The notes under the pieces: model-generated
Databases searched by the model: none
Told to the model about the DNA's origin: nothing
The model's input: the letters and a program-made list of their open reading frames with translations, nothing else
In this document: positions 30,746 to 55,352 of the stretch, piece by piece
How the letters are laid out: each line of letters starts with the position of its first letter
Numbering within the stretch: the stretch's first letter is position 1
Position numbers and translations under genes: made by a program
DNA from: Candidatus Polarisedimenticolia bacterium
Lineage (GTDB): Bacteria; Acidobacteriota; Polarisedimenticolia; Gp22-AA2
Direction: 5' to 3'
Assembly (NCBI GenBank): GCA_036001465.1
Contig: DASYUH010000040.1
Span: forward strand, 11,466 to 75,465
Length of the DNA: 64,000 nucleotides

Positions 30746-30846
30746 GATCGCCTCTCAGCTGAGCCGCGCCCGCCCTTGGACGCGCTCAAGAATCGAGAAC
30801 ATATCCGACATGTATCGTCGTATATTACGTGGCGCTGAAAGGCCTG

Positions 30847-31104
30847 TCAAGCGCGGAGCGGCGGGGCGGGCGGGGCAGGCGCGTCGCGCTGAATCCTGCG
30901 GCTCTTGAGGTTCCGGAAGGCCGCATCCTGGTGGACAGGATAGGCCGCGCCCAGGTCAACCCAAAGCTTGAGGACTGTACCCTTGGCCGCGCCCGTCATT
31001 CGGCAGGTCGCCCGGATGGAGTTCCCTTCAATAGCGTCGCGACTACCTGAGCCCTCTTCTCTCTTGTCAGCTTGTTCATGCACTAAGCATGCTTGAGCTG
31101 TCAA
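30847..31104 (-). pseudogene. Possible remnant of a transposase/recombinase HTH (85-codon ORF) at the left edge of the low-GC islet
   Basis: NSIRATCRMTGAAKGTVLKLWVDLG resembles transposase N-terminal HTH segments. No catalytic domain follows. Speculative. Confidence 0.25.
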
Positions 31105-31138
31105 GGAAAGTCAAGCAGCATTTGTAGCGAAATATCAT

Positions 31139-31167
31139 TTGACTTCCTACTTTGTATTGAATAGTAT
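31139..31167 (+). promoter_or_regulatory. Sigma70-like promoter TTGACT-N17-TAGTAT upstream of the Fic gene
   Basis: TTGACT at 31139-31144, 17 nt spacer, TAGTAT at 31162-31167. AAGGGA SD lies 9 nt before the ATG at 31202. Sits in an AT-rich intergenic region. Confidence 0.55.
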
Positions 31168-31201
31168 CACTACGAAATATCTATTTAAGGGATATAACGC
31201 T

Positions 31202-32359
31202 ATGCTATTCAACACACCAAACCTAACCGCGAAAGACTTGGAAGTTGTTGCAAGAATTGATGATATCAAAAAACGCCTTGGCGTAGCAATTCGCGCTCCA
31301 AAGCGATGGATAGGTCTGCTGGCCAGGACCGCACTGGCAAAAGCCATCCAAGGGTCAAACAGCATCGAGGGTTACAACGTATCGATGGACGATGCCATCG
31401 CGGCGGTTGAGGGCGAAGAGCCTTTGGATGCAAAGACAGAGGAATGGCTTGCGGTGACTTCCTACCGCAGGGCTATGACCTACGTATTGCAACTCGCGTC
31501 AGACCCACACTTCGCCTATAGCAACGCAGTCATCAGAAGCCTGCACTTCATGATGCTTGAGTATGACCTTTCAAAACATCCCGGCGGCTGGCGGCCGGGG
31601 CCTATCTTCGTCAGGCGAGAAGCAACGGGAGAAATAGTCTATGAGGGACCACAGGCCGACGAAGTGCCAGCTCTCATGGAAGAGCTCGTCGAATCACTGC
31701 GAAAGGCAGACGCAGTGCCCGATCTGGTCACGGCGGCAATGGCTCACCTGAACCTAGTAATGATTCATCCTTTTTCAGATGGAAACGGAAGGATGGCACG
31801 CTGTCTACAGACGCTTGTTTTGGGTCGGCTTGGCGTTCTGGCCCCGGAGTTTTCTAGCATCGAAGAGTATCTAGGGAGAAACCGCGAGGCTTACTACCAA
31901 GTGCTGGCCTCCGTTGGCAGTCCAACATGGGCTCCTGACAGGGACGCGCATCCGTGGATTCGGTTTTGCATGAGCGCGCATTTCCTCCAGGCTTCACGAG
32001 TCCTTCGCAGAACAAAAGTCCTGGATCAGTTGTGGAGCGCTTTCGAAGAAGAGACGAAAAAGCACAAATTGCCAGACAGATGCATCTTGGCTCTTCTTGA
32101 TGCAACGTTCAGCGGTCGGGTTCGAAATCCAACCTATCGGAAAATGGCTGACATTTCCGATCAGGTAGCTGGCAAGGACCTTAGAGAATTAGTGCGTACT
32201 GGACTGCTAATCGCAGAGGGGGAGAAGCGAGGGCGCTCCTATGTAGTTTCAGATGCAGCCAAGAAGGCATCTGCACGTATCAAGATTCCAAAAATCATCG
32301 AAGACCCCTACGCTGAAGACACCGCATATCTGCCAGGGATCGCGCCAGAAGTCCTATGA
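31202..32359 (+). CDS. Fic-family protein (class II, N-terminal inhibitory motif), likely AMPylase
   Basis: Fic motif HPFSDGNGRMAR. N-terminal SxxxEG inhibitory motif (SNSIEG). Locally low GC. Confidence 0.85.
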   Translation: MLFNTPNLTAKDLEVVARIDDIKKRLGVAIRAPKRWIGLLARTALAKAIQGSNSIEGYNVSMDDAIAAVEGEEPLDAKTEEWLAVTSYRRAMTYVLQLASDPHFAYSNAVIRSLHFMMLEYDLSKHPGGWRPGPIFVRREATGEIVYEGPQADEVPALMEELVESLRKADAVPDLVTAAMAHLNLVMIHPFSDGNGRMARCLQTLVLGRLGVLAPEFSSIEEYLGRNREAYYQVLASVGSPTWAPDRDAHPWIRFCMSAHFLQASRVLRRTKVLDQLWSAFEEETKKHKLPDRCILALLDATFSGRVRNPTYRKMADISDQVAGKDLRELVRTGLLIAEGEKRGRSYVVSDAAKKASARIKIPKIIEDPYAEDTAYLPGIAPEVL

Positions 32360-32578
32360 CTTCCTAGACCATCGTGCCTTTGCCGCCACCCTGGCGATGG
32401 CCTTCCTCTTCTTGGCGCTAAGCCGCGCCGCCCTTGCCTTGCCGCCCTTGAGACCGCCAAGCCGTCCTAAAGCTACCGCCGCAGGGTTCTTTTCCCTGGG
32501 CGGGTCGGATGTGGCTTCCTGGACGATGGATGCGGCCAGCTGATTTGGGTCTGTCGGCTTTCTTGAGCGGTTAGGCAT
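32354..32578 (-). CDS. Small K/R-rich basic protein, putative nucleic-acid binding
   Basis: 74 aa ending GRLGGLKGGKARAARLSAKKRKAIARVAAKARW. Convergent with Fic, overlapping its stop by 6 nt. Function unknown. Confidence 0.35.
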   Translation of the reverse strand: MPNRSRKPTDPNQLAASIVQEATSDPPREKNPAAVALGRLGGLKGGKARAARLSAKKRKAIARVAAKARWSRKS

Positions 32579-32619
32579 GCCTCATGGTAGCATGAGTTCA
32601 ACCATCCAAGGGGGAATCA

Positions 32620-33039
32620 ATGAATCGGCACGGCGGCCTATGCGCGTTTGGACTATTCATGGCGATAGCATTCGGCAGCGTTCACGCGGCTGAAACCGAG
32701 CTAGAAAAACCGAAAGCGGTGAAGGACGGAGGGGTTTATGAGTTCTGCACACCCGATCCATCAAGACCGGCCGTTGGTCGGGACCTATACCAAGCGCTGT
32801 GCATCGCCTATCTGAGAGGATACGTCGACGGATTAGACATATCGTCAACGAAGATGGCGATGCTCACGTGTCTGCCGCCAGAAGGTGTGCGTGGCGACGT
32901 TCTCCAAGCGATAGTTGTCAAATGGCTCCTTCAGAATGAGTCTAGAGTTAAAGGGCAACTTACAACAGGCAAAATCGCAGTCATCGCAGCACTGTTAGAG
33001 GAATACGCCTGTCCTGACGCCACCAACAAGTCAAACTGA
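32620..33039 (+). CDS. Small secreted four-cysteine protein
   Basis: Signal peptide MNRHGGLCAFGLFMAIAFGSVHA. Four Cys. Low GC. Confidence 0.45.
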   Translation: MNRHGGLCAFGLFMAIAFGSVHAAETELEKPKAVKDGGVYEFCTPDPSRPAVGRDLYQALCIAYLRGYVDGLDISSTKMAMLTCLPPEGVRGDVLQAIVVKWLLQNESRVKGQLTTGKIAVIAALLEEYACPDATNKSN

Positions 33040-33942
33040 CCCACTACCGGGAGGAGCGGCGGCTTGCGTGTGCCGCTTCGCATGATAGGAGCTGCGCACG
33101 AGCGGCCCCGCCTCCACGTGGCGGAAGCCGTGCCGGAGAGCCTGGTCCCGCAGCTCGGCGAACTCGTCGGGGGGGTAGTAGCGGACGACGGGAAGATGGG
33201 AGAGCGTCGGCCGGAGATACTGGCCGAGAGTCAGGATCTCGACTCCGGCCTCGGCCAGCGCGGCGAACGTCTCCAGGAGCTCGTCGCGCTCCTCTCCGAG
33301 ACCGACCATGAGCCCGGTCTTCACCAACGGACGCGGCGCCTGATCTCTCCAGACGACCGCCTGGCGCAGGAGGCCCAGGGAACGCTCGAAGTGCGACCCC
33401 TGGCGCGCCTCCGGGTAGAGGCGGGGCACCGTCTCGATGTTGTGGCTGAAGGTGACCGGGCCCTCCGCCAGGATCGCGTCGAGCGGCCGCTCGACCCCGC
33501 GGAAGTCGGAGGTCAGGACCTCCACCTCGCATTCGGGGTTGCGGGATCTGACGGCGCGGATCACCGAAGCGACGTGCCCCGCGCCGCCGTCCGGCAGGTC
33601 GTCCCGGTCGACCATGGTGAGGACGGCGTGCTCCAGCTCCAGATGGCGCACCGCCTCGGCGACGTGCTCCGGCTCGTCCGGGTCGACGGCCCGGGGGCGC
33701 CCCGTGGCCACCGCGCAGAAACCGCAGCGCCGGGTGCAGGTGTCCCCGAGGATCATGAACGTGGCGGTCCGGTCGCCCCAGCATTCGTAGATGTTGGGGC
33801 AGCGGGCCTCCTGGCAGACGGTGTGGAGCTTCAGGCCCTGCACCATGCGGTGCAGGTCGCGGTAGTTCTCCCCGGTGTCGAGGCGAATCTTCAGCCAGGG
33901 GGGCTTCGGCCCCGGCAGCTCCGTCCGTGGCAGGCCGGACAT
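33031..33942 (-). CDS. lipA: Lipoyl synthase
   Basis: Radical-SAM CxxxCxxC (CTRRCGFC) plus N-terminal Cys cluster CQEARCPNIYEC. ATGA overlap with lipB. Confidence 0.95.
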   Translation of the reverse strand: MSGLPRTELPGPKPPWLKIRLDTGENYRDLHRMVQGLKLHTVCQEARCPNIYECWGDRTATFMILGDTCTRRCGFCAVATGRPRAVDPDEPEHVAEAVRHLELEHAVLTMVDRDDLPDGGAGHVASVIRAVRSRNPECEVEVLTSDFRGVERPLDAILAEGPVTFSHNIETVPRLYPEARQGSHFERSLGLLRQAVVWRDQAPRPLVKTGLMVGLGEERDELLETFAALAEAGVEILTLGQYLRPTLSHLPVVRYYPPDEFAELRDQALRHGFRHVEAGPLVRSSYHAKRHTQAAAPPGSGSV

Positions 33943-42556: not shown

Positions 42557-43186
42557 ATGAGCGACGAGCCCGAGGACGCGCCGGACCTGGAGATTCCGCC
42601 CGGCCGCGTGGGCGGCCCGTTCGACTTCGAGGCCCTGTTCGGGAACCGCCGCCCCGTCGAGATGGAGATCGGCATCGGCAAGGGCCGGTTCATGCTGGCG
42701 CAGGCCGAGGCCCGCCCGGAGGTGAACTTCCTCGGGGTCGAATGGTCGCTGAAGTACCTTCGGGTGGCCCGGGACAGGGCCCGGCGCCGGGGCCTCGGAA
42801 ACGTCCGCCTGTTCCGCGCCGATGCCCGCCACGTGCTGGCCGCCCTGGTGCCGGACGGCTCGCTCGCGCGGGTGCACGTCTATTGCCCCGATCCCTGGCC
42901 GAAGAAGCGGCACCGCAAGCGAAGGCTGTTCACCGAAGAGACCGCCGCGCACCTGGGCCGCGTGCTCGCGGGCGGCGGTTACCTGCATGTGTCGACCGAC
43001 GTCCTGGAGTATTTCGAGGAGATCACGACCGTCGTGCCGGCGCACTCGGGCCTCAGGAAGGCCGTCGATCCGCTGTTCCCGGACGACGGTACCGAGGGGC
43101 GGACGAACTACGAGGCCAAGTACGTGCAGGCGGGACGGACGATTCACCGCGCCGCCTACACGGCTCCGTTCAGGGGACCTCGATGA
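42557..43186 (+). CDS. trmB: tRNA (guanine46-N7)-methyltransferase
   Basis: TrmB motifs (EIGIGKGRF, FLGVE, YCPDPWPKKRHRKRRL). Confidence 0.85.
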   Translation: MSDEPEDAPDLEIPPGRVGGPFDFEALFGNRRPVEMEIGIGKGRFMLAQAEARPEVNFLGVEWSLKYLRVARDRARRRGLGNVRLFRADARHVLAALVPDGSLARVHVYCPDPWPKKRHRKRRLFTEETAAHLGRVLAGGGYLHVSTDVLEYFEEITTVVPAHSGLRKAVDPLFPDDGTEGRTNYEAKYVQAGRTIHRAAYTAPFRGPR

Positions 43187-43484
43187 TGATGTCTCCCGAC
43201 TCCACGCGGACGGGATAGCAGCGCACCTTCATTTCGGAGTCGATGGGGGACTCCCCCGTGCGGACGTCGAAGGTCCAGCCGTGCCATGGACAGGAGACGA
43301 TCGACTCCCCCTCCAGGTACCCCTCCCCCAGCGGTCCGCCCTGGTGGGGGCAGGTGTTGTCGATGGCGTGCAGCTCCCCCCCCACGTTGAAAATCGCCAC
43401 CACGTGCTCGTTGACCTGCACGACCTTGCTGCTGCCGGGCGGGATCTCCTCCGCGCGGCCGCAGCGCGCCTTGATCGGCATCAT
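43170..43484 (-). CDS. Rieske [2Fe-2S] domain protein (ferredoxin subunit-like)
   Basis: CPHQGGPL...CPWHGW Rieske boxes. Confidence 0.8.
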   Translation of the reverse strand: MMPIKARCGRAEEIPPGSSKVVQVNEHVVAIFNVGGELHAIDNTCPHQGGPLGEGYLEGESIVSCPWHGWTFDVRTGESPIDSEMKVRCYPVRVESGDIIIEVP

Positions 43485-43490
43485 CGTTCC

Positions 43491-43844
43491 TCAGCGAATC
43501 AGATCGTCCTCGATGTTGGTCTTGCCGTAGCGCGCCCCGCAGGCGGCGACGAAGCGGTGGGCCACCTGCGCCAGCGCCCGGCGCACTCCGGAGGTCTTCT
43601 CCGGGTCGGTCAGCGGCTCGAGCCGCACGGTGAGGCCGTCGTCCCGATGCGACAGCTGGATGAAGAATTTCTGCGTGTGGCCCGTCTCGACGACCACCAT
43701 CTCGATGAGGGCCGCGCGCGCCTCCCGCTCCCGGTAGAAGCGCTCCGCCTTGATGATCAGGCCGCCCTCCCGGTGGACGAACGGCTCGAAGCGGCGCTCG
43801 GCCACGTCGATGGTGATGTCTCCCTCCAGGACCACGTGCGGCAC
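43491..43844 (-). CDS. Hypothetical protein (117 aa)
   Basis: Unbiased composition, immediately upstream of the Rieske gene. No recognised domain. Confidence 0.4.
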   Translation of the reverse strand: MPHVVLEGDITIDVAERRFEPFVHREGGLIIKAERFYREREARAALIEMVVVETGHTQKFFIQLSHRDDGLTVRLEPLTDPEKTSGVRRALAQVAHRFVAACGARYGKTNIEDDLIR

Positions 43845-44545: not shown

Positions 44546-46033
44546 GTGATGAGAGCCCGAAGTCGCCGCCGGCGGGTGCGGCTCGAGCGCGATCCGCTCG
44601 GGAGCCTGGCCGTGCCGGCGGACGCCTACTACGGCATCCAGACCCGACGCGCGATGCTCAACTTCCCGATCAGCGGCCGCCGCCTTCCTCCCGTCTTCGT
44701 CCGCGCGTACGCCCACATCAAGCACGCGGCCGCGGGCGTAAACGTGTCGCTGGGGCTTCTGGATCGAAGGCGGGGTGCGGCGATCCGCCGGGCGGCGTCC
44801 GAGATTCTCGCCGGACGCCACCTGGACCAGATGGTGATCGATGTGTACCAGGCCGGTGCGGGAACGTCCCAGAACATGAACCTGAACGAGGTCCTCGCGA
44901 ACCGGGCGATCGAGATCCTCGGCGGAGATCGCGGGGACTATTCCGTGGTCCACCCGAACGATCACGTCAACCTGTCGCAGTCCACGAACGACACCTTCCC
45001 GTCCGCCTTGCGCATCAGCGTCCTCCTGGCCCTGCCCGGCCTTCTCCGCTCGCTGCGGGCGTGCGAGGCGGAGCTGCGGGCGCTGGAGCGCCGGTTCCAC
45101 GACACCGTGAAGACGGCGCGCACGCACCTGCAGGACGCGGTGCCGATCACGCTGGGCCGGGAATTCGGCGCCTTCGCCACGATGGTGGACCGCGCCGCCC
45201 GCCGCGTCCGGGAGGCCTCGGCACCTCTCTCCCGGCTGAATCTTGGCGGAACGGCGGCGGGGACCGGCCTGAACGCCCACCCGCGCTATGCGAGCCGCGT
45301 GGCCCGCGCGCTCTCCCGGCAGACCGGCCTTCGTCTTCTCCCGGCCGGGGACCCGGTGGAGACCGCGATGTCGACCGCCGATTTCGCGGCCTTCTCCGCG
45401 GCGCTGCGCGGGGCGGCGATCGACCTGGGAAAGATCGCCTCCGACCTGCGCCTGCTGGCGTCCGGCCCCGTCGCGGGACTGGCGGAAATCCGGCTGCCCG
45501 CCGTGCAGCCGGGATCCTCGATGATGCCGGGCAAGGTCAATCCGGTGATGTGCGAGATGCTGAACATGGTCTGCTTCCAGGTGATCGGCTGTGACGAGAC
45601 GGTCGCCTGGGCCGCCGCGGCCGGGCAGCTCGAGCTGAACGTCATGCTGCCGGTGATCGCCCACAATGTCCTCGAGTCGATCGCCCTCCTGGAGGCGGCG
45701 GTCGCGGCGGTCGCGCGGCGCGGACTTCGGGGGATCCGGGCCGACACCGCGCGCTGCCGTTTCTATTTCGAGAGGAGCCCGACCCTGGCGACGGCCCTGG
45801 CGCCCGTCCTGGGCTACGCGAAGGCGGCGGAGATGGCGAAGGAGTCCATCCGGACCGGGAAGACGATCGCGACCCTCGCGATCGAGAGCGGCCTGTTGAA
45901 GCGGGAGGCCATCCGCCGCGCCCTCGACCCGGATCGCCTGACGCGACCGGGCATTTTGAAGGCCGTGCGGCCGGCGCGTCTCAGGCGCCGCGGGCGCGAC
46001 GCTTCAGGCTCCGCGCGATCGCGTAGAGACTGA
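44546..46033 (+). CDS. Aspartate ammonia-lyase / class II fumarase family lyase
   Basis: GSSMMPGKVNP signature. Cannot separate AspA from FumC by eye. Confidence 0.85.
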   Translation: MMRARSRRRRVRLERDPLGSLAVPADAYYGIQTRRAMLNFPISGRRLPPVFVRAYAHIKHAAAGVNVSLGLLDRRRGAAIRRAASEILAGRHLDQMVIDVYQAGAGTSQNMNLNEVLANRAIEILGGDRGDYSVVHPNDHVNLSQSTNDTFPSALRISVLLALPGLLRSLRACEAELRALERRFHDTVKTARTHLQDAVPITLGREFGAFATMVDRAARRVREASAPLSRLNLGGTAAGTGLNAHPRYASRVARALSRQTGLRLLPAGDPVETAMSTADFAAFSAALRGAAIDLGKIASDLRLLASGPVAGLAEIRLPAVQPGSSMMPGKVNPVMCEMLNMVCFQVIGCDETVAWAAAAGQLELNVMLPVIAHNVLESIALLEAAVAAVARRGLRGIRADTARCRFYFERSPTLATALAPVLGYAKAAEMAKESIRTGKTIATLAIESGLLKREAIRRALDPDRLTRPGILKAVRPARLRRRGRDASGSARSRRD

Positions 46034-46226
46034 TGGCGGTCCACGCCCCTTCGAGCAGGATGAATCCGAACTGGGAGGCATCGACCGCCACGCCGAAGAG
46101 GATCGCCCCTCCCACGGCGTTGACGATGTGGTAGGCCAGCGACTCGCGCCCGAGGCGCCCCGCCTGGTGCGCGGCGTAGGCCGCCAGGATCAGAGCCGCC
46201 CCGAGAAGCGACGCCACCTGGATCAT
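45981..46226 (-). CDS. Possible small two-TM membrane protein
   Basis: Hydrophobic 80 aa ORF (MIQVASLLGAALILAAY...). Overlaps the lyase 3' end by ~50 nt, so uncertain. Confidence 0.3.
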   Translation of the reverse strand: MIQVASLLGAALILAAYAAHQAGRLGRESLAYHIVNAVGGAILFGVAVDASQFGFILLEGAWTAISLYAIARSLKRRARGA

Positions 46227-46257: not shown

Positions 46258-47277
46258 TCAGGACGCGGCAGGCAGACTGCGCTCCACCTTGGCCTGCTCC
46301 TTGAGGCGATCGACGTAGGCGCGGATCCGCGCCTCGCGCCCGCGCGCCAGGAGCCGGGCGCGGATCGCATTCTTGGCGTCCTCGAACGGGATCGGGCCCT
46401 CCGGCCGCCTGGACGCGACCTTGATGATGTGCAGGCCGTAGCGCGACTCGATCACGTCGCTGACCATGCCGGGCTCCAGCGAGAACGCCACCTTCTCGAT
46501 GGCGGGGGGCCCCTTCCCCCTGATGAGGAGCCCCGCGTCGCCGCCCGCGGCGGCCTCGGCCCCCTCGGAATGCCTGCGCGCCAGCTGGGCGAAGTCCTCT
46601 CCGGCGCGGAGCTCCTTGAGGATCGCCTCGATCTTCTGGCGGGCGGCGGCCCGCTCCGCCTGCGAGGCCGAGGGGGTGACGCGCACCATGATCTGGCTCA
46701 GGCGCACGGCTTCGGGGCGCACCATCTCGGCCGGGTTCTGATCGTAATAGCGCCGGACCTCCTCGTCCGTCACTTCGAGCCCGGACAGGACCTCCCGGTC
46801 GACGAAGCGCGTCACGATCAGGGTCCTTCGGAGCTGCTCCTTGATCTCGGCCTCGGTGACCCCGGTCTCCTTCAGGACGTCCGCGAACTCCGAGGCGGAC
46901 GGGAAGCCGTCCCGCAGGGTCTTGAATTCCGCTTCGATCCGCTCCTCCGGGACCGCGGCATCGGCCTTGGACGCCTTCTGGTACAGAAGCTCGTTCTCGA
47001 TCAGCTGCTCCAGGACCTTCTCGCGCACCGACTGCAGCTCCTTGAGCCCGTCCCGTCCCGGCCGCCGGCCGCGGAACTGGAGCTGCACGGCCGCCTCGAA
47101 GTCGCGCCGCAGGATCGGCCGGCCATTGACCCTGGCGACGGAATCCGCGGGGGCCTCCCCCGCGCCCGGCGCCGCGAGCCCCGGGGCGCAGGCCAGGAGC
47201 AGCAGCCCGAGGAGGGCGGGGACGCGCACGGCCCGGGCGCTGCCGAAGAGCAGGGAACGACGGAGAGGGGAAGGCAT
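46258..47277 (-). CDS. SurA/PpiC-type peptidyl-prolyl cis-trans isomerase
   Basis: Signal peptide, SurA_N-like chaperone region, parvulin domain (GGDAGLLIRGK...YGLHIIKV). Confidence 0.75.
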   Translation of the reverse strand: MPSPLRRSLLFGSARAVRVPALLGLLLLACAPGLAAPGAGEAPADSVARVNGRPILRRDFEAAVQLQFRGRRPGRDGLKELQSVREKVLEQLIENELLYQKASKADAAVPEERIEAEFKTLRDGFPSASEFADVLKETGVTEAEIKEQLRRTLIVTRFVDREVLSGLEVTDEEVRRYYDQNPAEMVRPEAVRLSQIMVRVTPSASQAERAAARQKIEAILKELRAGEDFAQLARRHSEGAEAAAGGDAGLLIRGKGPPAIEKVAFSLEPGMVSDVIESRYGLHIIKVASRRPEGPIPFEDAKNAIRARLLARGREARIRAYVDRLKEQAKVERSLPAAS

Positions 47278-47281
47278 GGTG

Positions 47282-48364
47282 TCAGGTCCGGGCCGTGATC
47301 TCCTGCTCGTACTTCCTGTACGTGTTGACGCTGATGATCGCCGCGAGCTTTTCGGCCATGTCCTTGAACGCGAGGGCCGGGCCGGACTTCGGATCGTACA
47401 CGACGACGGGGCGGCCGTCATCGCCCCCCTGCCGCAGCCGGACGTCGAGCGGAATCTCTCCCAGGAACGCCGTCTCGAACTGCTCCGCCACCCGCTTGCC
47501 GCCGCCGTGGCTGAAGATCTCGACCCGCTCGCCGCAGTGCGGGCAGCCGAAGTAGGACATGTTCTCGACCACGCCGAGGATCGGCACGTTCACCTTCCGG
47601 AACATCGCCGCCGCCTTGCGCACGTCGAGGAGGGCCACGTCCTGCGGGGTCGTAACCAGCACCGCCCCGGTCAGGGGGATGATCTGGGACAGGGTGAGCT
47701 GGACGTCGCCGGTGCCGGGCGGCAGGTCGATGAAGAGATAGTCGAGCTTCCCCCACAGCACGTCCCCCAGGAACTGCTTCATGGCGCCGTGCAGCATGGG
47801 ACCGCGCCAGACGACCGGCTCGTCCTCCTTCAGGAAGAAGGCCATCGACATCATCTTGATGCCGTGGATCGGCACCGGCAGGAGCTTGCGGTCCTGCACC
47901 TCGGGCTTCAGCTTCAGGCCCAGCATCTGCGGATCGTTCGGCCCGTAGATGTCGGCGTCCATCAGCCCGACGGCGGCGCCGGCGCGCGCGAAGGCCAGCG
48001 CCAGGTTCACGCTCACCGTGGACTTGCCGACTCCCCCCTTCCCCGAGCCGATGGCGACCACGTTCGCCACCTCCGGGATCAGCCCCCCCTCGGTCTCGAT
48101 ACTCCGGCGTACCTTGGCCCCCATCTTGAGGTCGACGGAGGCGACTCCGGGAAGCCGCGACAGGGCGTCCCGGACGTCCTTCTCGATCTGGGCCTTCAGC
48201 GGACATCCGGGGGTCGTGAGGTTCACCGTCAGGGAGACCTTGTCCCCATCGACGAGGAGGTTCTCGATCATGCCGAGCGAGACGATGTCGACGTTCAGCT
48301 CGGGATCCTTCACCGTCCGGAGGGCGTCCAGGACGATGGCCGGCTCGTTGCGCGGCGCGCTCAC
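47282..48364 (-). CDS. apbC: Fe-S cluster carrier P-loop NTPase ApbC/Mrp (NUBPL/Ind1 homolog)
   Basis: N-terminal DUF59-like, Walker A GKGGVGKST, CPHC motif. Confidence 0.9.
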   Translation of the reverse strand: MSAPRNEPAIVLDALRTVKDPELNVDIVSLGMIENLLVDGDKVSLTVNLTTPGCPLKAQIEKDVRDALSRLPGVASVDLKMGAKVRRSIETEGGLIPEVANVVAIGSGKGGVGKSTVSVNLALAFARAGAAVGLMDADIYGPNDPQMLGLKLKPEVQDRKLLPVPIHGIKMMSMAFFLKEDEPVVWRGPMLHGAMKQFLGDVLWGKLDYLFIDLPPGTGDVQLTLSQIIPLTGAVLVTTPQDVALLDVRKAAAMFRKVNVPILGVVENMSYFGCPHCGERVEIFSHGGGKRVAEQFETAFLGEIPLDVRLRQGGDDGRPVVVYDPKSGPALAFKDMAEKLAAIISVNTYRKYEQEITART

Positions 48365-49617
48365 GATCGATCCTCCGCGTCCTCGGCGGCGGCGCCGCGC
48401 GGCGGCGGCAGCGGCGTCGCGGCCGCCGCTTCAAGGGTACCGGCCCAGGGGCGGGACAGCCCGGTGAGGTCGCGCGTCACCTCTCCCACGCCGAGGACGA
48501 GCACCTTGAAGCGATCTCCCATCCCGCCGGGCAGGACCAGGTCCTTGAGAGCCTCCCGTTCCTCGATCGCCTCGACCCGCCGTGCCACGGGGACAGGCAC
48601 CTGCCCGGGACCGCCGGCCGCGACGGCCGCCGGCACCGCCAGGAAATCGAGCGCTCCCAGCGCGAGAAGGAACCGCGATTGGGTCGTGAGGCCCAGGAGG
48701 CGCGCGCCGGCGGTCTCCGCCGCGCGCTTCACGGCGGTGAAATCGACGTGCGCGGTGAGATCCTGCTCTCCGGGCCTCAGGAGAAACTCCTCGTTGACTC
48801 GATGCCGGTGATACGCCAGGAGCGTGCCACGAGGGCGCGCCGGGACGTAGAGATCGCGGGCCTCGTATCCATAGTCCACGAGCACCATGTGGCCGCGCTG
48901 CAGCAGGCCGGCGGCCCAGGCCACCCAGCAGGGGGCGGCCAGGTTCAGGTCGACCTCCTGACCGTCCTCGAGAGTGATCTCCGAGTCGGCGAGGAATCGT
49001 CCCAACGCGTCGCTCGACAGCGGTCCCGTGATTTCCTCCAGCCGACCGTCCCGCGAGGCGACGTGGATCTCCCGCGGCCCGTCCGGCGTGCCCACGACGC
49101 GGTGCACCGGAAAAGCGTCCAGGACCTCGTTCGCGAACAGGCATCCGGCGAACTTGGCCCGCGCGTCGAGCTCCGGCTCGGTCAGCCACGAGACCGGGGC
49201 TGCACCGCGCCCTCCCAGTCGGGCGCGCTGGCGATCCCTGAGGGCGCGGCTCGGTTCGACCATCAGGTACCGAAGGGCCCGTAGAAACCCGTCGTGCCGC
49301 GCCGCTTCCTGCAGGAAATCCCAGGCGAAGTGCCCCTCACCGGGACCGAACTCGACGAACAGGTACGGGTCGGGGCGGCCGGTACGCCGCCACATCTCCT
49401 CGGCCTGGCGGGCGATCAGCGCCCCGAAGGCGCGATGCAGGCCGCTGCTCGTGAGATAGTCCCGCCCGCCGCCGCCCCCGAGACCCCGCGTGTAATATCC
49501 GTGGGTCGGGTGGTACAGGCACATCTCCATGAACCGGGCGAAGGGGATCGGCCCGCGGCCGGCGATCTCCGCGGCGATTTCAGCCTCGAGGCGGTCACGG
49601 GTGTCGGAGGCAGCCAT
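48361..49617 (-). CDS. MidA-family SAM-dependent methyltransferase (DUF185; NDUFAF7 homolog)
   Basis: MidA-like N-terminus (FMEMCLYHPTHGYYT) and methyltransferase fold. Confidence 0.7.
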   Translation of the reverse strand: MAASDTRDRLEAEIAAEIAGRGPIPFARFMEMCLYHPTHGYYTRGLGGGGGRDYLTSSGLHRAFGALIARQAEEMWRRTGRPDPYLFVEFGPGEGHFAWDFLQEAARHDGFLRALRYLMVEPSRALRDRQRARLGGRGAAPVSWLTEPELDARAKFAGCLFANEVLDAFPVHRVVGTPDGPREIHVASRDGRLEEITGPLSSDALGRFLADSEITLEDGQEVDLNLAAPCWVAWAAGLLQRGHMVLVDYGYEARDLYVPARPRGTLLAYHRHRVNEEFLLRPGEQDLTAHVDFTAVKRAAETAGARLLGLTTQSRFLLALGALDFLAVPAAVAAGGPGQVPVPVARRVEAIEEREALKDLVLPGGMGDRFKVLVLGVGEVTRDLTGLSRPWAGTLEAAAATPLPPPRGAAAEDAEDRS

Positions 49618-49651
49618 CGCCTAGGAGCCTGTCCGAGTATCGGTACGGGCC
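49618..49651 (-). repeat. Copy A of the ~30 nt dispersed element. On the minus strand it reads CGCGGCCCGTACCGATACTCGGACAGGCTCCTAG-gcg-ATG(midA)
   Basis: Overlaps the last 10 codons and stop of nuoB and ends 3 nt before the midA start codon. Confidence 0.6.
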
Positions 49652-50202
49652 GCGCGAGCGGCGGCCCCGGGGAGCGCCTTGCCCCGCCCGGAGCCCGCCT
49701 GCTCCTCCACCAGTCGCTGCACCTGCATGATCCCTTCGATCAGGGCCTCGGGGCGCGGCGGGCAGCCGGGAATGTAGACGTCCACGGGAATGATCTCGTC
49801 CACCCCCTGAACGACCGGGTAGGATCGGAACATCCCTCCCGATGAGGCGCACGCCCCCATCGCGATGACCCATTTCGGCTCGGGCATCTGGTCGTAGATC
49901 CGCTTCACCGCCGGCGCCATCTTCTTGGTGACGGTCCCCGCCACGATCATCATGTCGGCCTGTCGCGGCGAGAAGCGCAGCGCCTCCGCCCCGAAGCGCG
50001 CCACGTCGTAGCGCGGCGCCACCATCGCCATCAGCTCGATGGCGCAGCAGGCCAGCCCCATCGGCATCGGCCAGAGCGAGTTCTTGCGGCCCCAGGCGAC
50101 GTAATCGGCCAGCCGGGTCGTGAGCAGCCACTGGTCCAGGGCGCCCTCCTCGTGCCTCCCGGCGAGGGCGGCGGCCGCGTCGCGGTTCGGGGCGTCGCTC
50201 AA
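49621..50202 (-). CDS. nuoB: NADH-quinone oxidoreductase subunit B-like (NuoB / [NiFe]-hydrogenase small-subunit fold)
   Basis: [23 protein letters not shown]. No in-frame ATG; putative TTG start at 50202 overlaps the nuoI stop. Confidence 0.8.
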
Positions 50203-50762
50203 CGGACCGCGCTCCTCTCCCCGCCCGCGGTCCCGGTCGCGGCCTTCTCCGCTCCGCCAACGAGACGCGACCACTTCCGGATCGAATCCGGACGGATGCC
50301 GCCCATTTCGAGCAGCTTCTCCTTGGGGAAGATCATGTCCTCGCGGCTCAGGCCGACCGTCGAGTATTCCCGGGTCAGGAAAATCGCCTGCTCGGGGCAG
50401 ACCTCCTCGCAATACCCGCACATGATGCAGCGCAGCATGTTGATGTCGAACACCTTCGGTCCCTTCTCGACACCCGTCTCGATCTCCTGCGCCTCGATGT
50501 GGATGGCCTTGGGCGGGCAGACGTACTCGCACAGAAAGCACGCGACGCATTTCACGCGCTCGGCCTGGTCGCGCACCAGGGCCGGCAGGCCGCGGTAACG
50601 CTCGGGCATCGCCCATGTCTGCTCGGGGTACTGCATCGTCACCTTGCGCCGGAACAGGTGCCGGAAGGTGATCCACATCCCCTTGAGGATCGACGGAAGG
50701 TAGGTCAGCTCGAGAAGGGTCGGTCTGCCCGGGCGATTCACCGGCTTGCCGATCAATGGCAT
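50199..50762 (-). CDS. nuoI: NADH-quinone oxidoreductase subunit I-like (2x[4Fe-4S] ferredoxin)
   Basis: [12 protein letters not shown] and [12 protein letters not shown] plus NuoI-specific N-terminal region ([15 protein letters not shown]). Confidence 0.85.
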
Positions 50763-51163
50763 CGCACCGCCTCCCGCTCCGCCCGGGCCGCCTCCCGGTG
50801 GCGCCTCAGGGCCTCCCGGATCGCCTGCTCCGCCAGGACCGAGCACTGGATTTTCGATGCCGGCAGGCCTCCCAGCGCCTCGACCACATCGTGGTTGGTC
50901 AGGCGCGCGGCGTCCTCGACGCTGCGGCCCCGGAGGAGCGTCGTCGCCATGCTGCCCGAGGCGATCGCCGCGGTGCAACCGAAGCTCTTGAAGCGGGCCT
51001 CGACCACGATCTCCTTCTCGATCCGGAGGCTGATCCTGAGGACGTCGCCCGTCTCCGGGTCGCCGACCTGGGCCACCGCGGAGGTTCCATGGATCTCGCC
51101 GACATGACGCGGGTTCCGGGCGTGGTCCATGACCGTGTCGCTGTACCTGAGCGGTTCATCCAT
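50753..51163 (-). CDS. NifU/IscU-type Fe-S cluster assembly scaffold
   Basis: [32 protein letters not shown]. Confidence 0.85.
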
Positions 51164-51180
51164 CGGTTCGCCGGCGCCCC

Positions 51181-51217
51181 CTGGAAGCCTGTCCGAGCAT
51201 TCGACCGGGCCGCCCGC
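51181..51217 (-). repeat. Copy C (variant) of the dispersed element, 17 nt upstream of the NifU-like start
   Basis: Minus strand reads CGGGCGGCCCGGTCGAATGCTCGGACAGGCTTCCAG. Confidence 0.5.
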
Positions 51218-51275
51218 CCGTCATGGAACCGGTCGGCAGGCGGCCTCATCATCGTAGGGGGGACGGCGATCGCTG

Positions 51276-52151
51276 TCAAGGCAACGCCTGCGGCGCCTCC
51301 GCGGCGATCGCCTCGAGCGCCAGGCGGGCGGTGGCGCGGATCTCGTCCCCCTGCCCCGAATCAGCCGCGCGTTTCAGCGCGGCGCGGGCGGCATCGTCCT
51401 TGAGCAGGGCCAGCGCCCGGATGGCATTGAGGCGCGCCGAGGTGTCGACCGGCTCCCCCGCGCCGGACCCGCCCCCCTCGAGGATGCCGATCAGCACCGA
51501 CTCGCCCGAGCCGTCCCCCAGGCGGGCCAGGGACAGCGCCGCGTTCCAGCGCACGCTCAGGGTCGCGTCGCGCAGGGCCGACCTCAGGGCGTCCGCCCCT
51601 TCATGGTCCCCCAGCTCTCCCAGCGCGAAGACGGCCATGGTGCGGACGCCCTCGTCCCGGTCCCCCACCGCCGCCCGAAGATCCGGGAGGGACGACCGGT
51701 CGCCGACCTGCATCAGGCCCCAGGCGCAGAAGAGTCGCGTTGCGCCGTCCGGATCCTGCAGCCCCTCCTTGAGGGCCGGGCCCGCGCGCGCGTCGCCGGA
51801 CCGCCCGAGGGCCAGGGCCAGATAGCGGCGCAGCTTCGGGTCCTCGCCGGCCTCCCGGAAGGCCGCGGCCAGCTCCGGCGCCAGGGCCGCCCCCCCGTCG
51901 GCCGTTCCGGAGCGCACCGCGAGGGAGAGGTCGTATCCCGACTGCCAGCGCTTCGGATCGCCGGCCCACGGCAGGAGGAACCGCGACGGGCCCTTCAGGT
52001 GCTCGAGCGTCGCCCGCGGGTCGGGATGGCGGGTGCGCAGGACCTGGAGCCCGAAAAAGACGCTGACCAGGACCGCGACGAGACCGAGCGGCACGATGAA
52101 AAACTGCAGCACGACCTTCCAATCGCTCTTCTCGTCCCGGTCCGTCGTCAT
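51276..52151 (-). CDS. Membrane-anchored HEAT-repeat (PBS-lyase-like) protein
   Basis: N-terminal TM helix, then repeated LG/ALG...AxxAL HEAT-like units. Confidence 0.6.
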   Translation of the reverse strand: MTTDRDEKSDWKVVLQFFIVPLGLVAVLVSVFFGLQVLRTRHPDPRATLEHLKGPSRFLLPWAGDPKRWQSGYDLSLAVRSGTADGGAALAPELAAAFREAGEDPKLRRYLALALGRSGDARAGPALKEGLQDPDGATRLFCAWGLMQVGDRSSLPDLRAAVGDRDEGVRTMAVFALGELGDHEGADALRSALRDATLSVRWNAALSLARLGDGSGESVLIGILEGGGSGAGEPVDTSARLNAIRALALLKDDAARAALKRAADSGQGDEIRATARLALEAIAAEAPQALP

Positions 52152-52158
52152 GCGGTCC

Positions 52159-52620
52159 TCAGGCGGTCCGCGGGCGGCGGTCCACCGCCTCCTGGATGTG
52201 GATGTCGAAGGGGCCGTGCTCCGGGTTCCGGCGGAACCCCCGGTGGATCGTGCCGCAGCCGTAGCACAGGGTCGCGTCCCCGAGAGCGACATAGAGCGCG
52301 AGGTCGATGATCGTGGCGGCGAGCAGGCTCAATCCCCAGGTCGGGATGCTCAGGGCCGCGGCCACGATGAACACCCAGAGTCCCGTCTTCTTGTTGAAAT
52401 CCTTCTGCACGTACAGCCGGGCGAGCCCGCAGCGCACGCAGCGGGACAGGAGCCGCGTGTCGAGCCCCGCCCCGGTGGCGTCCAGGTCGTGCGCGCGCCC
52501 GCACCCGGGACAGGCGACCCGCGCCAACGGCGCATCCAGCGGATGGACGAGCTCCCGCTCGCAGCCGTCGCAGAGAAACGCCGCGCTCGGCGGCCGGGCG
52601 CCCCGCGCGTCCCGCTTCAC
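52159..52620 (-). CDS. Zinc-ribbon + two-TM membrane protein (hypothetical)
   Basis: CDGC...CPGC and CVRCG...CYGCG Cys pairs flanking two TM helices. GTGA overlap with the upstream gene. Confidence 0.45.
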   Translation of the reverse strand: MKRDARGARPPSAAFLCDGCERELVHPLDAPLARVACPGCGRAHDLDATGAGLDTRLLSRCVRCGLARLYVQKDFNKKTGLWVFIVAAALSIPTWGLSLLAATIIDLALYVALGDATLCYGCGTIHRGFRRNPEHGPFDIHIQEAVDRRPRTA

Positions 52621-53408
52621 ATCGGTCCCGCGCCGGCCACCGTCAGGTAGCGGGCCAGGAACTCGCCGTACATCACGAAGATCACGGCGATGTAGAGGAT
52701 CCCCGTCGCCGACTGCGTCGAGCGCATGCGCGCCGTCTCGTGCACCATGAAGGCGAACACCCCCGGCCCCAGAATCCCGAAGAGGATCCTCTGCCAGAAG
52801 AAGAATCCCCGATCGATCGCGGCGGCCCTCAGGTACGACCCCATCCCGAGCTCCGATTGCGCGCCGGCGCCGATCAGGCCGGCCGCGAAGAGCACCGCCC
52901 GCCCGAGAACCGCCGCGGCGAAGAAGCGGGCGAACACCACCAGGTGCGACACGTCCAGGCGGGTCCGGACCAGGTACCAGTGGCCCAGGAGCATCCCCAC
53001 GATCACCGAGCCGAGGAGGGCCGAGGCGCAGACCGCGTTGACTCCGAAGGCCCACGACGGTCCCGGGGCGCCCGCACCGGCGCGGCCGTCCGCCGCGACG
53101 GTCGCGAGCGCCACGGCCGCGGTCGTCACCAGGAGTCCCCGCGAGGAGCGGCCCCCGCGCAGCGCCAGCAGCGCCGCCACGTAGGCCATCACCAGGACCA
53201 TGGCGAGGAGGGCCAGGATCGACGCGGCGGACCACACCCCCTGCGAGGAGAACCGGTACGGGGCCGCGAGGCAGAGAAGAAGGAACGCCAGGCTGGCGTT
53301 CAGGATGAAGAAGAAGCGTCCGAGCTCGCCGAAGGGAGCGAGCGGGAGCGCCGCCAGGATGCCGGCGGCGGCGCAGGTGAACAGACCGATCGCGATCGCC
53401 GCCGCCAC
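52617..53408 (-). CDS. Polytopic integral membrane protein (hypothetical)
   Basis: About 8 TM helices. No recognised family. Confidence 0.5.
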   Translation of the reverse strand: MAAAIAIGLFTCAAAGILAALPLAPFGELGRFFFILNASLAFLLLCLAAPYRFSSQGVWSAASILALLAMVLVMAYVAALLALRGGRSSRGLLVTTAAVALATVAADGRAGAGAPGPSWAFGVNAVCASALLGSVIVGMLLGHWYLVRTRLDVSHLVVFARFFAAAVLGRAVLFAAGLIGAGAQSELGMGSYLRAAAIDRGFFFWQRILFGILGPGVFAFMVHETARMRSTQSATGILYIAVIFVMYGEFLARYLTVAGAGPM

Positions 53409-53465: not shown

Positions 53466-54491
53466 TTACCCGCCGATCTGCCACATCTTTCGCGGGAGCC
53501 GTTCCTGGTAGTACTGGTGGAGGTCCAGGCACCCGCCCGCCTCCTTGCCGCGAACCGCCGTGCGGAGGGCGAGGGCGATCTCGGAGTCGGTGCCGCCTCC
53601 GCGCAGCAGGGCGGCAAGGTCGGTCTCGGTGCGGGAGAAGAGGCAGGTGCGAATCTTGCCGTCGGAGGTCAGCCGGATCCGGTCGCAGTCGCCGCAGAAC
53701 GGCTCGGTGACCGGGTTGATGAATCCGATGTCCCCTGCGCCTCCGGCGAGGCGGAACACGTTGGCCGGTGACGACGGGCGATCGCGGCCCACCGGCACGA
53801 GCGGGTGGATCGCCTCGACGCGACGCCGGACCTCGCTGCCCGGGACCAGACGTTCCGTTTCGAACGGCTCCCCTCCGCCCAGAGGCATCATCTCGATGAA
53901 ACGCACCTGGTAGGGACGGCGCCACGCCCAGTCGACGAAACGCGGAATCTGGTCGTCGTTGATCCCGCGCAGAAGAACGATGTTGATCTTGATCGGCACG
54001 GCGCGGAACCGCTCGAGCTCGACGAGCCCCTCGAGGACCATGTCGAGGCTGTTCCGCCGGCTGACCGCGGCGAACCCGGCCGGATCCAGGGAGTCGATGT
54101 GGACGTTGAACCGGCCGACCCCGGCCTGAAGGAGCGGTTCCGCCAGCTCCTTGAGCAGGAGGCCGTTGGTGGTGATCGCCAGGTCTTCGATTCCATCGAT
54201 CCCCGCGATCCGGCGCGCCAGGACCGGCAGGTCGCGGCGCATCAGCGGCTCCCCTCCGGTCAGCCGGATCTCGCGGACCCCGAGCGTGGCGAGGATGCGC
54301 GCCACGCGCTCGATCTCCTCGAAGGTCAGGATGCGGTCCTTCTCGAACCAGGCGATGGGTCCCGCGGGCATGCAGTAGAGGCAGCGCAGGTTGCAGCGAT
54401 CGGTCACGGAGATGCGCAGGCTGCGGACGACGCGCGCGAAACGGTCGACGAGCGGACCGCGCAGGTCGGGGCTGTCCACGGTGGCCGTCAT
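53466..54491 (-). CDS. moaA: GTP 3',8-cyclase (molybdenum cofactor biosynthesis protein A)
   Basis: Radical-SAM CNLRCLYC and C-terminal CGDCDRIRLTSDGKIRTC cluster. Confidence 0.9.
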   Translation of the reverse strand: MTATVDSPDLRGPLVDRFARVVRSLRISVTDRCNLRCLYCMPAGPIAWFEKDRILTFEEIERVARILATLGVREIRLTGGEPLMRRDLPVLARRIAGIDGIEDLAITTNGLLLKELAEPLLQAGVGRFNVHIDSLDPAGFAAVSRRNSLDMVLEGLVELERFRAVPIKINIVLLRGINDDQIPRFVDWAWRRPYQVRFIEMMPLGGGEPFETERLVPGSEVRRRVEAIHPLVPVGRDRPSSPANVFRLAGGAGDIGFINPVTEPFCGDCDRIRLTSDGKIRTCLFSRTETDLAALLRGGGTDSEIALALRTAVRGKEAGGCLDLHQYYQERLPRKMWQIGG

Positions 54492-54530
54492 GCCTGGATT
54501 ATAGCCGGATCCGTCCCGGGACGCCGTCGT

Positions 54531-54881
54531 TCATGCCGGCTCCCCGGACGGTTCCGGAGCCTCGCCTTCCGGCACTGCCGGCTCCTTCTTCTTGAAGAGC
54601 AGGCGCTCGACCACCCGTCCATGGACGAGATGATCGCGGACGATTTCCGCGACGTCCTGGGGGCCCACGCCGCTGTAGACGACGCCGTCCGGGTAGATGA
54701 TGACATTCGGACCGTAGCTGCACAGTCCGAAACAGAGACATGGCGTGTCCTTGACGGAGGCCGGCAGGGCCTGACGGACGAACTGCTTGCGGAACTCCTG
54801 CCGGATGCGCTCGGAGTGGCGCTCCCCCCCGCAGCGCGGTCCGGTGCAGATCAGGACGTGCAGCTTGAAGGGAAGGTTCAC
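54531..54881 (-). CDS. Thioredoxin-like [2Fe-2S] ferredoxin
   Basis: CTGPRCGG...CLCFGLCSYGP pattern. Confidence 0.7.
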   Translation of the reverse strand: MNLPFKLHVLICTGPRCGGERHSERIRQEFRKQFVRQALPASVKDTPCLCFGLCSYGPNVIIYPDGVVYSGVGPQDVAEIVRDHLVHGRVVERLLFKKKEPAVPEGEAPEPSGEPA

Positions 54882-54887
54882 ACGATC

Positions 54888-55352
54888 CTATTCCACTTCC
54901 AGAATCGCCTGCAGCTCCAGGCAGGCGTTCTGGGGCAGCTCGGAAACGCCCAGGCTGAGGCGGGTGTGCTTGCCGCGCTCGCCGAACACCTTCACGAACA
55001 CCTCCGAGGCTCCCTCGATGACGTCGAACGCATCGAGGAACCCCGGCGCCGCCGCGACGTGGCCGACGATCTGGACCACCCGCTTGATCCGATCCAGGTC
55101 CTCGACCGACTGCTTGGCGGTCGCGAGGACGCTCAGCCCTGCGAGGCGCGCGGCCTCTTTCCCCTGCTCGACCGTGACCTCGCGTCCGATCTTCCCGGGA
55201 TACTTGAGGCGGCCGTTCTCCTTCGGGAGCTTGCCCGAGATGAACAGCAGATTGCCGGACCTGACACTCTGGACATAGTTCCCGAGAGGCTTGCCGACCT
55301 CCGGGAGGCGGTACCCGAGCGCTTCGAGGCTCTTTTCGACTTCTCCAGGCAT
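54888..55352 (-). CDS. ridA: RidA/YjgF family reactive-intermediate deaminase
   Basis: YjgF-family motifs. Start at MPGEVEKS. Confidence 0.75.
   Translation of the reverse strand: MPGEVEKSLEALGYRLPEVGKPLGNYVQSVRSGNLLFISGKLPKENGRLKYPGKIGREVTVEQGKEAARLAGLSVLATAKQSVEDLDRIKRVVQIVGHVAAAPGFLDAFDVIEGASEVFVKVFGERGKHTRLSLGVSELPQNACLELQAILEVE

Follow-up and report, generated by a model that had tools for sequence, protein, structure and literature searches.

Gene content and layout of the cluster

A 64,000-nucleotide (nt) stretch from a Candidatus Polarisedimenticolia bacterium (Acidobacteriota; contig DASYUH010000040.1 of assembly GCA_036001465.1, positions 11,466 to 75,465), hereafter called the window, carries a compact gene cluster in which two iron-sulfur (Fe-S) subunits of respiratory complex I, NuoI and NuoB, are encoded among putative maturation factors. 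Six minus-strand genes (51163-46258) specify, in order, a NifU-like protein, NuoI, NuoB, a methyltransferase of the MidA/NDUFAF7 family, an Mrp/ApbC-type ATPase, and a parvulin-type peptidyl-prolyl isomerase (PPIase), and all of them overlap or lie at most 4 nt apart (Table 1). As read from the sequence and coordinates, the NifU-like gene overlaps nuoI by 10 nt, nuoI overlaps nuoB by 4 nt (TTGA, in which the TTG start codon of nuoB overlaps the nuoI stop), nuoB and midA are separated by 3 nt, midA overlaps apbC by 4 nt, and apbC is separated from the PPIase gene by 4 nt. Gene identities were taken from Pfam and NCBIfam scans and from gene calls on identical metagenome contigs. The identities, order, and tight coupling that the initial annotation had proposed for these genes are borne out by the family scans, the junctions, and the identical contigs. 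Moreover, an identical NifU-like gene with the same neighbors occurs on nine independent metagenome contigs, and thus the cluster is not an assembly artifact.

In this window of ~70% G+C, the six genes belong to a co-directional array of 13 genes, of which they make up the distal part. The last gene of this array, located 31 nt past the PPIase gene, encodes a small membrane protein of the CBU_0592 family, and the array is closed by a convergent fumarase-class gene that overlaps the 3′ end of this last gene. A consensus scan of the region yielded five promoter-like sites, compared to 0.2 expected from shuffled sequences. One of these, TTGACA-17-TACGAT at 51251..51279 on the minus strand, lies ~88 nt upstream of the NifU-like start and is a consensus match only (10 of 12 positions), and another (55455-55427) lies upstream of a block of genes that begins with a yjgF-like gene. 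An Rfam scan of the window gave no matches.

It had also been claimed that no other nuo gene is adjacent to the pair, and this holds across the entire 64-kb window, where none was found by Pfam scans of ~40 further open reading frames (ORFs) or by tblastn searches with NuoA, C, D, E, F, G, H, J, K, and L from canonical operons. By tblastn, NuoD, NuoH, and NuoA were found neither in the window nor within 10 kb of the cluster in relatives.

Table 1. Features of the window, with the evidence for each assignment (aa, amino acids; TM, transmembrane segment)
Feature	Position	Strand	Length and start	Evidence
NifU_N protein (IscU/NifU-like)	50753..51163	minus	136 aa	Pfam NifU_N 130.8 bits
NuoI, TYKY type	50199..50762	minus	187 aa	TIGR01971; two CxxCxxCxxxCP motifs
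NuoB, PSST/Nqo6 type	49621..50202	minus	193 aa, TTG start	NF005012, TIGR01957
MidA/NDUFAF7-family S-adenosylmethionine (SAM)-dependent methyltransferase (Methyltransf_28)	48361..49617	minus	418 aa	PF02636 204 bits
Mrp/ApbC/NUBPL-type Fe-S carrier ATPase	47282..48364	minus	360 aa	PF10609 340 bits, PF01883 84 bits
SurA/PrsA-like parvulin PPIase	46258..47277	minus	339 aa	Rotamase and SurA_N domains
CBU_0592-family small membrane protein	45981..46226	minus	81 aa	NF047864 46 bits (cut-off 25); gene call in identical contig L001
TM-anchored HEAT-repeat protein	51276..52151	minus		
Double-zinc-ribbon protein, 2 TM	52159..52620	minus		
Mem263, 8-TM protein	52617..53408	minus		NrfD/PsrC/ActC-like predicted fold
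moaA	53466..54491	minus		Pfam label on identical contig L001
Thioredoxin-like [2Fe-2S] ferredoxin	54531..54881	minus		Pfam label on identical contig L001
yjgF/RidA-like	54888..55352	minus		Pfam label on identical contig L001
Soluble Rieske-type [2Fe-2S] ferredoxin	43170..43484	minus	104 aa	Pfam Rieske 69 bits

NuoB, NuoI, and their coupling to MidA

By sequence, both Nuo proteins are true complex-I-type subunits rather than hydrogenase-type relatives. NuoB exceeds the cut-offs of two NCBIfam models (241 bits versus 116 for NF005012, and 233 versus 142.7 for TIGR01957), and its best match among proteins in the PDB is Thermus Nqo6 (231 bits), compared to 116 bits for MbhJ and 99 for HycG. Alignment to Nqo6 reveals all four cysteine ligands of cluster N2, including the tandem CC and the PGCPP motif. 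NuoI carries both 4Fe-4S motifs (CxxCxxCxxxCP) and passes the TIGR01971 model (129 bits versus a cut-off of 113), and it scores far below the HycF and HyfH models. Its identity is 50% to the NuoI of a 14-gene operon (locus L092; the loci compared are designated by L numbers) and 31% to the corresponding protein, NuoI′, of an 11-gene operon (L176), and the pair appears to be of the classical 14-subunit type. Close NuoB homologs that bear organism names come from Acidobacteriota or Polarisedimenticolia. NuoB is 80-92% identical among lineages in which MidA is only 54-71% identical, and such high conservation is as expected for an essential core subunit.

These data speak to the option, raised in the initial annotation, that the pair serves an Ehr, Mbh, or other group 4 hydrogenase-related complex. 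NuoB-like and NuoI-like subunits do occur in such complexes. Nevertheless, MbhJ, MbsJ, and HycG reach less than half of the complex I NuoB score, the tandem CC of N2 is present, NuoI passes its own family model, and no NuoD-, NuoC-, NuoH-, or NuoL-like genes are adjacent. The suggested check of complex I versus group 4 hydrogenase thus comes out on the side of complex I by both bit scores and family models. The hydrogenase reading has been rejected on the basis of the model scores, the bit scores against Nqo6, MbhJ, and HycG, and the lack of these neighbors, and we give it almost no credence.

The gene order of relatives singles out NuoB and MidA. Five loci (L007, L013, L014, L095, and L097) retain the window's order of NifU-NuoI-NuoB-MidA-ApbC-PPIase, although some of them end at a contig edge. 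Elsewhere the flanks differ: L009 and L010 carry DUF2203, NuoB, MidA, and a tetratricopeptide repeat protein, with NuoI 10 kb away behind a Rieske gene; a locus from an Acidobacteriota metagenome-assembled genome (MAG; L015) has NuoB′, NuoI, NuoB, MidA, and a Rieske gene, where NuoB′ is a second NuoB of the type found in 11-subunit operons; and L132 carries NuoB followed by MidA. In L011 and L012, the order is NifU-like, class-I methyltransferase, NuoI, NuoB, MidA, and electron transfer flavoprotein-quinone oxidoreductase. Most often the nuoB and midA genes overlap by 4 nt, as in L007, L009, and L011, and their junction is kept down to 39-44% MidA identity while the flanks change. The invariant core is therefore NuoB-MidA, to which NuoI and the NifU-like protein are usually attached, and this conserved translational coupling in divergent Acidobacteriota supports the view that MidA is functionally linked to the NuoB/NuoI module. 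As a separate observation, the additional class-I SAM methyltransferase of L011 (8832-9512; 226 aa) and of L012, which is encoded between the NifU-like gene and nuoI, gave only generic class-I methyltransferase matches in family searches, and no kinship with NDUFAF5, the arginine hydroxylase that acts on NuoB/NDUFS7, is claimed for it.

Evidence for the same link comes from loci beyond this group. Aligned divergent MidA proteins were used to scan metagenomes, which yielded 80 MidA loci, and nuo genes at these loci were mapped by tblastn. MidA is directly upstream of NuoA-B-C-D-E-F-G in L110 and L140, lies ~0.5 kb upstream of NuoA-B-C-D-H-I in L151, L154, and L159, follows NuoA-B-C in L130 and L158, follows NuoD in L162, and is located 4 kb from NuoA-D in L129. 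Adjacency of midA to nuo genes is thus recurrent, with at least five other arrangements in metagenomes, whereas by our own rough estimate a given gene would neighbor a nuo gene by chance in <1% of cases. Altogether, nuo neighbors are present at ~14 of the 80 loci, which is not a clean frequency, since most of the loci that are not linked share one synteny type and probably derive from one lineage. The claimed link between MidA and the NuoB/NuoI module gains support from both the conserved NuoB-MidA junction and this wider adjacency, but the latter also means that the description of such compact operons as rarely seen was overstated.

The sequences of the MidA and Mrp/ApbC proteins are consistent with their family assignments. 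MidA contains the SAM motif VEFGPGEG, which is invariant in an alignment of MidA proteins, and it matches the bacterial COG1565 structures 4f3n (2e-38) and 1zkd (2e-29). Its match to the Dictyostelium NDUFAF7 homolog 5ztz (1e-13) covers residues 20-133, the N-terminal half, only. An identical MidA sequence in the database bears the name of a Candidatus Polarisedimenticolia MAG. The Mrp/ApbC protein combines a DUF59-type N-terminal domain, a GKGGVGKS P-loop (deviant Walker A), and a CPHC (CxxC) motif, and it scores 327.1 bits on the NCBIfam ApbC model, for which the cut-off is 348. The arginine of the NuoD motif HRGxEK, which is the presumed target of MidA, is present in every NuoD encoded in a MidA-adjacent operon. 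Variants with threonine at this position were found only in L081 and L092, operons without an adjacent MidA.

A proposed dispersed complex I and its alternatives

The explanation we favor, with confidence only a little above even, is that an operon conserved in Polarisedimenticolia and related Acidobacteriota would encode the NuoB and NuoI subunits of a dispersed 14-subunit-type complex I and co-express them with their own maturation factors, while the other nuo genes would sit elsewhere in the genome. The coupling of NuoB and MidA, usually together with NuoI, is the firm part of this explanation. Lineage-restricted roles of the NifU-like protein and ApbC in maturation are plausible. The PPIase would be a passenger, as would the small membrane protein.

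NUBPL (Ind1) is an Fe-S delivery factor for complex I. By analogy to such mitochondrial homologs, the Mrp/ApbC-type ATPase might load [4Fe-4S] clusters onto apo-NuoB (N2) and apo-NuoI (N6a and N6b), three clusters in total, perhaps with the assistance of the unusual IscU-like protein in cluster delivery. The ATPase may instead be the general Mrp of the cell rather than one dedicated to complex I. MidA, again by analogy to mitochondria, would symmetrically dimethylate the conserved arginine of the NuoD motif HRGxE next to N2, and this modification would let NuoD and NuoB join, as with NDUFAF7 for NDUFS2 and NDUFS7. By gene order, MidA is coupled to nuoB rather than to nuoD, and it is equally consistent with the data that MidA acts on a NuoB-containing intermediate. 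In mitochondria, NDUFAF7, which is required at an early stage of assembly (PMC3829151), dimethylates Arg85 of NDUFS2 beside N2 (PMC3829151; PMC9006661), and dimethyl-arginine is present in Paracoccus complex I according to Carroll (2013) as cited in PMC8042128. The function of prokaryotic MidA has so far been inferred only in silico (PMC12455994; PMC9006661).

Several observations, given in this and the next two paragraphs, weigh against a dispersed 14-subunit-type complex I with dedicated maturation factors. Its remaining genes (nuoA, C, D, E-H, and J-N) were not found in the part of the genome that the window covers. Furthermore, a 2.5-kb contig of a Polarisedimenticolia MAG (L175) carries NuoB′-NuoC-NuoD, and Acidobacteriota MAGs (L176 and L177) carry the complete 11-gene operon nuoA-B′-C-D-H-I′-J-K-L-M-N, which is without nuoEFG and has its own NuoI′. 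As judged from these sequences, Polarisedimenticolia very probably possess a separate complex I of 11 subunits that has B and I subunits of its own. The NuoD proteins of L175 and L176 have the target arginine, and MidA could equally serve the 11-subunit complex. The window pair, which had been described as separated from any full complex I operon, is orphan locally, but the counter-evidence that the initial annotation had named, a second complete nuo operon with its own nuoB and nuoI, exists in part at the level of the class, and B and I are probably not single-copy.

These findings raise the possibility that the 11-subunit NuoA-B′-C-D-H-I′-J-N enzyme is the working complex I, and that the cluster's NuoI and NuoB are interchangeable paralogs, taking the place of B′ and I′ in certain circumstances such as the use of another electron donor or quinone, in which case MidA, ApbC, and the NifU-like protein would mature the swapped-in set. 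The NuoB′-C-D contig and the full 11-gene operons fit this scheme, as does the failure to see partner genes of the 14-subunit type, although the sequence searched is only a small part of the genome. L015 (8959-10543), in which two NuoB paralogs, NuoB′ and the MidA-linked NuoB, flank a single NuoI, fits it as well. The NuoB′ of L175, an ortholog from a Polarisedimenticolia MAG (P0322), is 80% identical to the NuoB′ of L015, and NuoB′ is 57-62% identical to the window NuoB. In neighbor-joining trees, NuoB′ forms its own clade with 100% bootstrap support and joins the MidA-linked NuoB proteins in none of 100 replicates; monophyly of the MidA-linked NuoB proteins themselves has 33% bootstrap support, another point against the explanation we favor. 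A recent tandem duplication was considered as the origin of the two L015 genes and rejected, because none of 100 bootstrap replicates placed the two side by side. What speaks against an exchangeable set is the resemblance of the window NuoI to proteins from NuoEFG-containing operons rather than to NuoI′, with only 31% identity to the latter, which suggests a NuoG partner. In addition, NuoB is strongly conserved, like a constitutive core subunit. We therefore judge this alternative to be rather unlikely.

A different set of observations questions the extent of the cassette. The largest group of MidA loci (G+C 0.55-0.60, one synteny type) has no nuo neighbor, ApbC is attached in the close subclade only and is not in the cluster of L009, L011, L015, or L132, and the NifU-like protein has PETGD where IscU has PACGD, which places threonine at the first cysteine ligand (in an alignment that included 4eb5_C). 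It might be that only NuoB and MidA, with or without NuoI, are functionally linked, and that the NifU-like, ApbC, PPIase, and other genes are housekeeping genes in inherited order. The NifU-like gene is likewise not in the cluster of L009 and L015, and across the clade synteny extends to the entire block of 13 co-directional genes, among them yjgF, moaA, and the kds genes. The PPIase fits this pattern as well, since its N-terminus has a lipoprotein-type signal (LLLLAC), as seen from sequence and hydropathy, and it scores below all NCBIfam equivalog cut-offs. It is probably exported to the periplasm, co-transcribed with the cluster, and outside cytoplasmic Fe-S maturation. Opposing considerations are that in six lineages there is an overlap of 1-10 nt between the NifU-like gene and nuoI, that the former encodes a distinct paralog, with canonical IscU genes elsewhere in L015 and L011, that ApbC overlaps midA by 4 nt, and that NUBPL/Ind1, the mitochondrial homolog of ApbC, is complex-I specific. 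Inherited order without a dedicated cassette is an unlikely explanation overall. Of the dedicated cassette that had been proposed, the core of NuoB and MidA, usually with NuoI, survives, whereas the membership of ApbC and the PPIase is weakened.

In addition to the loss of the first cysteine ligand in the NifU-like protein, the histidine before the third cysteine is replaced by glutamine, while the second and third cysteines and the aspartate of the CGD motif are kept. The protein falls below the NCBIfam equivalog cut-offs for both NifU_clost (142.7 versus 187.9 bits) and IscU (111.8 versus 192.4). All seven cluster-linked orthologs, among them those of L007, L011, L013, L014, L095, and L097, have threonine or histidine in place of the first cysteine, with histidine in most. 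In comparison, an unlinked NifU of L015 (position 2018) has a normal PACGD, and L011 has an isc operon elsewhere. These sequences point to a distinct paralog that lacks the first cysteine and is not a standard scaffold, and when coupled to NuoI it may be a carrier or chaperone rather than a de novo scaffold. The claim of a U-type scaffold was thus right about the NifU_N domain, but not about a standard scaffold function, given the replaced ligand and the missed IscU and NifU cut-offs. The window does contain an iscR-like Rrf2 gene (30745-30326, minus strand) and a gene for an IscS-type cysteine desulfurase (544 bits), which together span 29130-30745, ~20 kb from the cluster. No iscU or iscA gene is present behind this pair, where the next gene is deoxyhypusine-synthase-like, and the only NifU_N gene found in the window is the one in the cluster.

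A dispersed complex I would have company among bacteria. A search of genome contigs with NuoB returned, among the matches listed, mostly Verrucomicrobiota loci that are either canonical or NuoB-NuoC only, and no Polarisedimenticolia genomes were among these listed matches. Most of the listed Verrucomicrobiota NuoB loci (among L016-L093), at least dozens, are of the latter kind, and NuoD, NuoE, and the later subunits are lacking within 10 kb of them. Operons for complex I are widely fragmented in this phylum, and split nuo operons are common. According to one survey, all marine Acidobacteriota MAGs recovered, including a Polarisedimenticola MAG, encode Nuo complexes (PMC8528874). Separately, an unusual nuo cluster for the hydrophilic arm only is present on an Acidobacteriota chromosome (OY970399.1; L082, 9941-14558). 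It encodes NuoB, NuoC and NuoD as a fusion (NuoCD), a NuoG-like protein, and NuoI, and genes for membrane subunits do not adjoin it.

Neighboring genes and further leads

Upstream of the cluster lie three genes for membrane proteins, and it is uncertain whether this trio of Mem263, double-zinc-ribbon, and HEAT-repeat proteins belongs to the system. The yjgF-like, ferredoxin, and moaA genes beyond them (53466..55352) are probably a conserved synteny block outside the cluster's function. Mem263, an 8-TM protein from a family of ~1,183 clusters at 50% identity, has invariant LGHWYL and STQSATGILY motifs, but it yields no Pfam or NCBIfam match (Pfam was run on 46 family members) and no PDB sequence match. 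An AlphaFold2 model of the protein is confident (predicted local distance difference test, pLDDT, 94.6; predicted template modeling score 0.92). Using Foldseek, the model matches ActC (8k9e_C; TMq 0.71, E 2e-4) and PsrC (E 0.06), as well as ActF and cytochrome bd subunits. Its best structural matches, ActC and ActF, are the quinone-interacting subunits of alternative complex III.

The soluble Rieske-type ferredoxin is the second lead. Its gene directly follows MidA in L015 (11837-12214), directly precedes NuoI in L009 (19801-20112), and is found by tblastn near the pair in L007, L011, L013, L014, L095, and L096 as well, whereas L097 and L132 are not long enough to reveal it. In loci of Polarisedimenticolia, a conserved protein of 117 aa that matches no family (window 43491-43844, minus strand) is always encoded between a Bcp/AhpC-type peroxiredoxin and the Rieske ferredoxin.

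Such neighbors allow for the idea that NuoI and NuoB act outside complex I, together with the NrfD/ActC-like Mem263 and the small Rieske ferredoxin, in a novel quinone-reactive Fe-S complex. Consistent with this idea are the confident Mem263 model with its matches to the quinone-interacting ActC, ActF, and PsrC, the occurrence of Mem263 beside this cluster only among all loci compared (in the window, L014, L095, and the divergent L011 and L015), and the recurrence of the Rieske gene near the pair in most lineages. However, NuoB-MidA is retained in L007, L013, L097, and L009, all of which lack Mem263, and the fold match of Mem263 is remote (12-13% identity, E ~1e-4). NuoB normally needs NuoD and NuoH to form a quinone site, and both Nuo proteins of the cluster share 50-75% identity with ordinary subunits of complex I. 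A novel complex of this kind seems very improbable. A broader and bolder version, which we regard as improbable, holds that NuoI-NuoB would be a separately matured, exchangeable Fe-S cartridge with its own IscU-like protein lacking the first cysteine, MidA, Mrp, and possibly Mem263 and the Rieske ferredoxin, and that this cartridge would serve to re-tool the 11-subunit complex or else would make up a new quinone-reactive module. Mem263 and the Rieske ferredoxin should be viewed as leads, not findings.

One more region of the window stands out for its base composition. Between iscR/iscS and lipA/lipB, the stretch 30800-33050 has a G+C content of ~0.60, versus ~0.70 elsewhere, and looks like an inserted island. 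It carries an ORF of 406 aa (31139-32359, plus strand) in which the Fic motif HPFSDGNGRMARC occurs, along with two small ORFs (32354-32578, minus strand; 32620-33039, plus strand), the latter with a signal peptide.

Comparison with known systems

The assembly factors of complex I have been studied in depth in mitochondria. For bacteria, the conserved nuoB-midA unit of Acidobacteriota, together with the repeated midA-nuo adjacency elsewhere, provides independent gene-order evidence on how the enzyme matures. It suggests that arginine methylation near N2 could be a maturation step of complex I that arose early in bacteria, that this step might be tied to the joining of NuoB to the complex, and that it is likely not limited to Proteobacteria. 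Two additional candidate players emerge, namely an IscU-like protein without the first cysteine that is coupled to NuoI, and an NrfD-like family of membrane proteins (Mem263). From a practical perspective, the cluster is a compact set of genes with which maturation of the Q module might be reconstituted in a heterologous host.

The closest parallel is with mitochondrial Q-module assembly. Window MidA belongs to the same family as NDUFAF7 (PF02636), the implied site of action is the same NuoD/NuoB interface at N2, and the target arginine is kept in acidobacterial NuoD. In contrast to NDUFAF7, the window protein is encoded by a gene translationally coupled to nuoB, in a bacterium outside Proteobacteria, and its activity and substrate are putative. 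MidA has been treated as (alpha)proteobacterial in origin, with its bacterial role inferred (PMC9006661; PMC12455994). Similarly, the window Mrp/ApbC protein shares PF10609, the CxxC motif, and the deviant Walker A with NUBPL/Ind1 and bacterial Mrp/ApbC, but it differs from NUBPL/Ind1 in having the bacterial DUF59 N-terminal domain and in being linked to the cluster in a close subclade only. The NifU-like protein belongs to the NifU_N fold family of U-type scaffolds and keeps two cysteines and the aspartate, whereas its cluster-linked orthologs have threonine or histidine for the first cysteine of IscU and NifU, and the window protein falls below the equivalog cut-offs.

Compared to canonical nuo operons, either 14-gene (nuoA-N) or 11-gene (nuoABCDHIJKLMN; L024, L092, and L176 were used), the window NuoB and NuoI are ordinary members by sequence, but the window has the I-B order only, with no A, C, D, or H nearby, embedded among maturation genes. 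The nuo cluster of Rhodobacter capsulatus includes extra unidentified reading frames, among them urf7, which encodes a SAM-dependent methyltransferase with a proposed assembly role (PMC9036352). By description, this provides a precedent for a methyltransferase gene inside a bacterial complex I cluster, and the window differs from it in phylum and layout. Overall, all parts of the cluster belong to known families, and service of MidA and Mrp to complex I is established for mitochondria and has been proposed for alphaproteobacteria. What is new is the I-B-only arrangement tied to maturation genes, its location outside Proteobacteria, the breadth of the midA-nuo linkage, and the IscU-like partner without the first cysteine.

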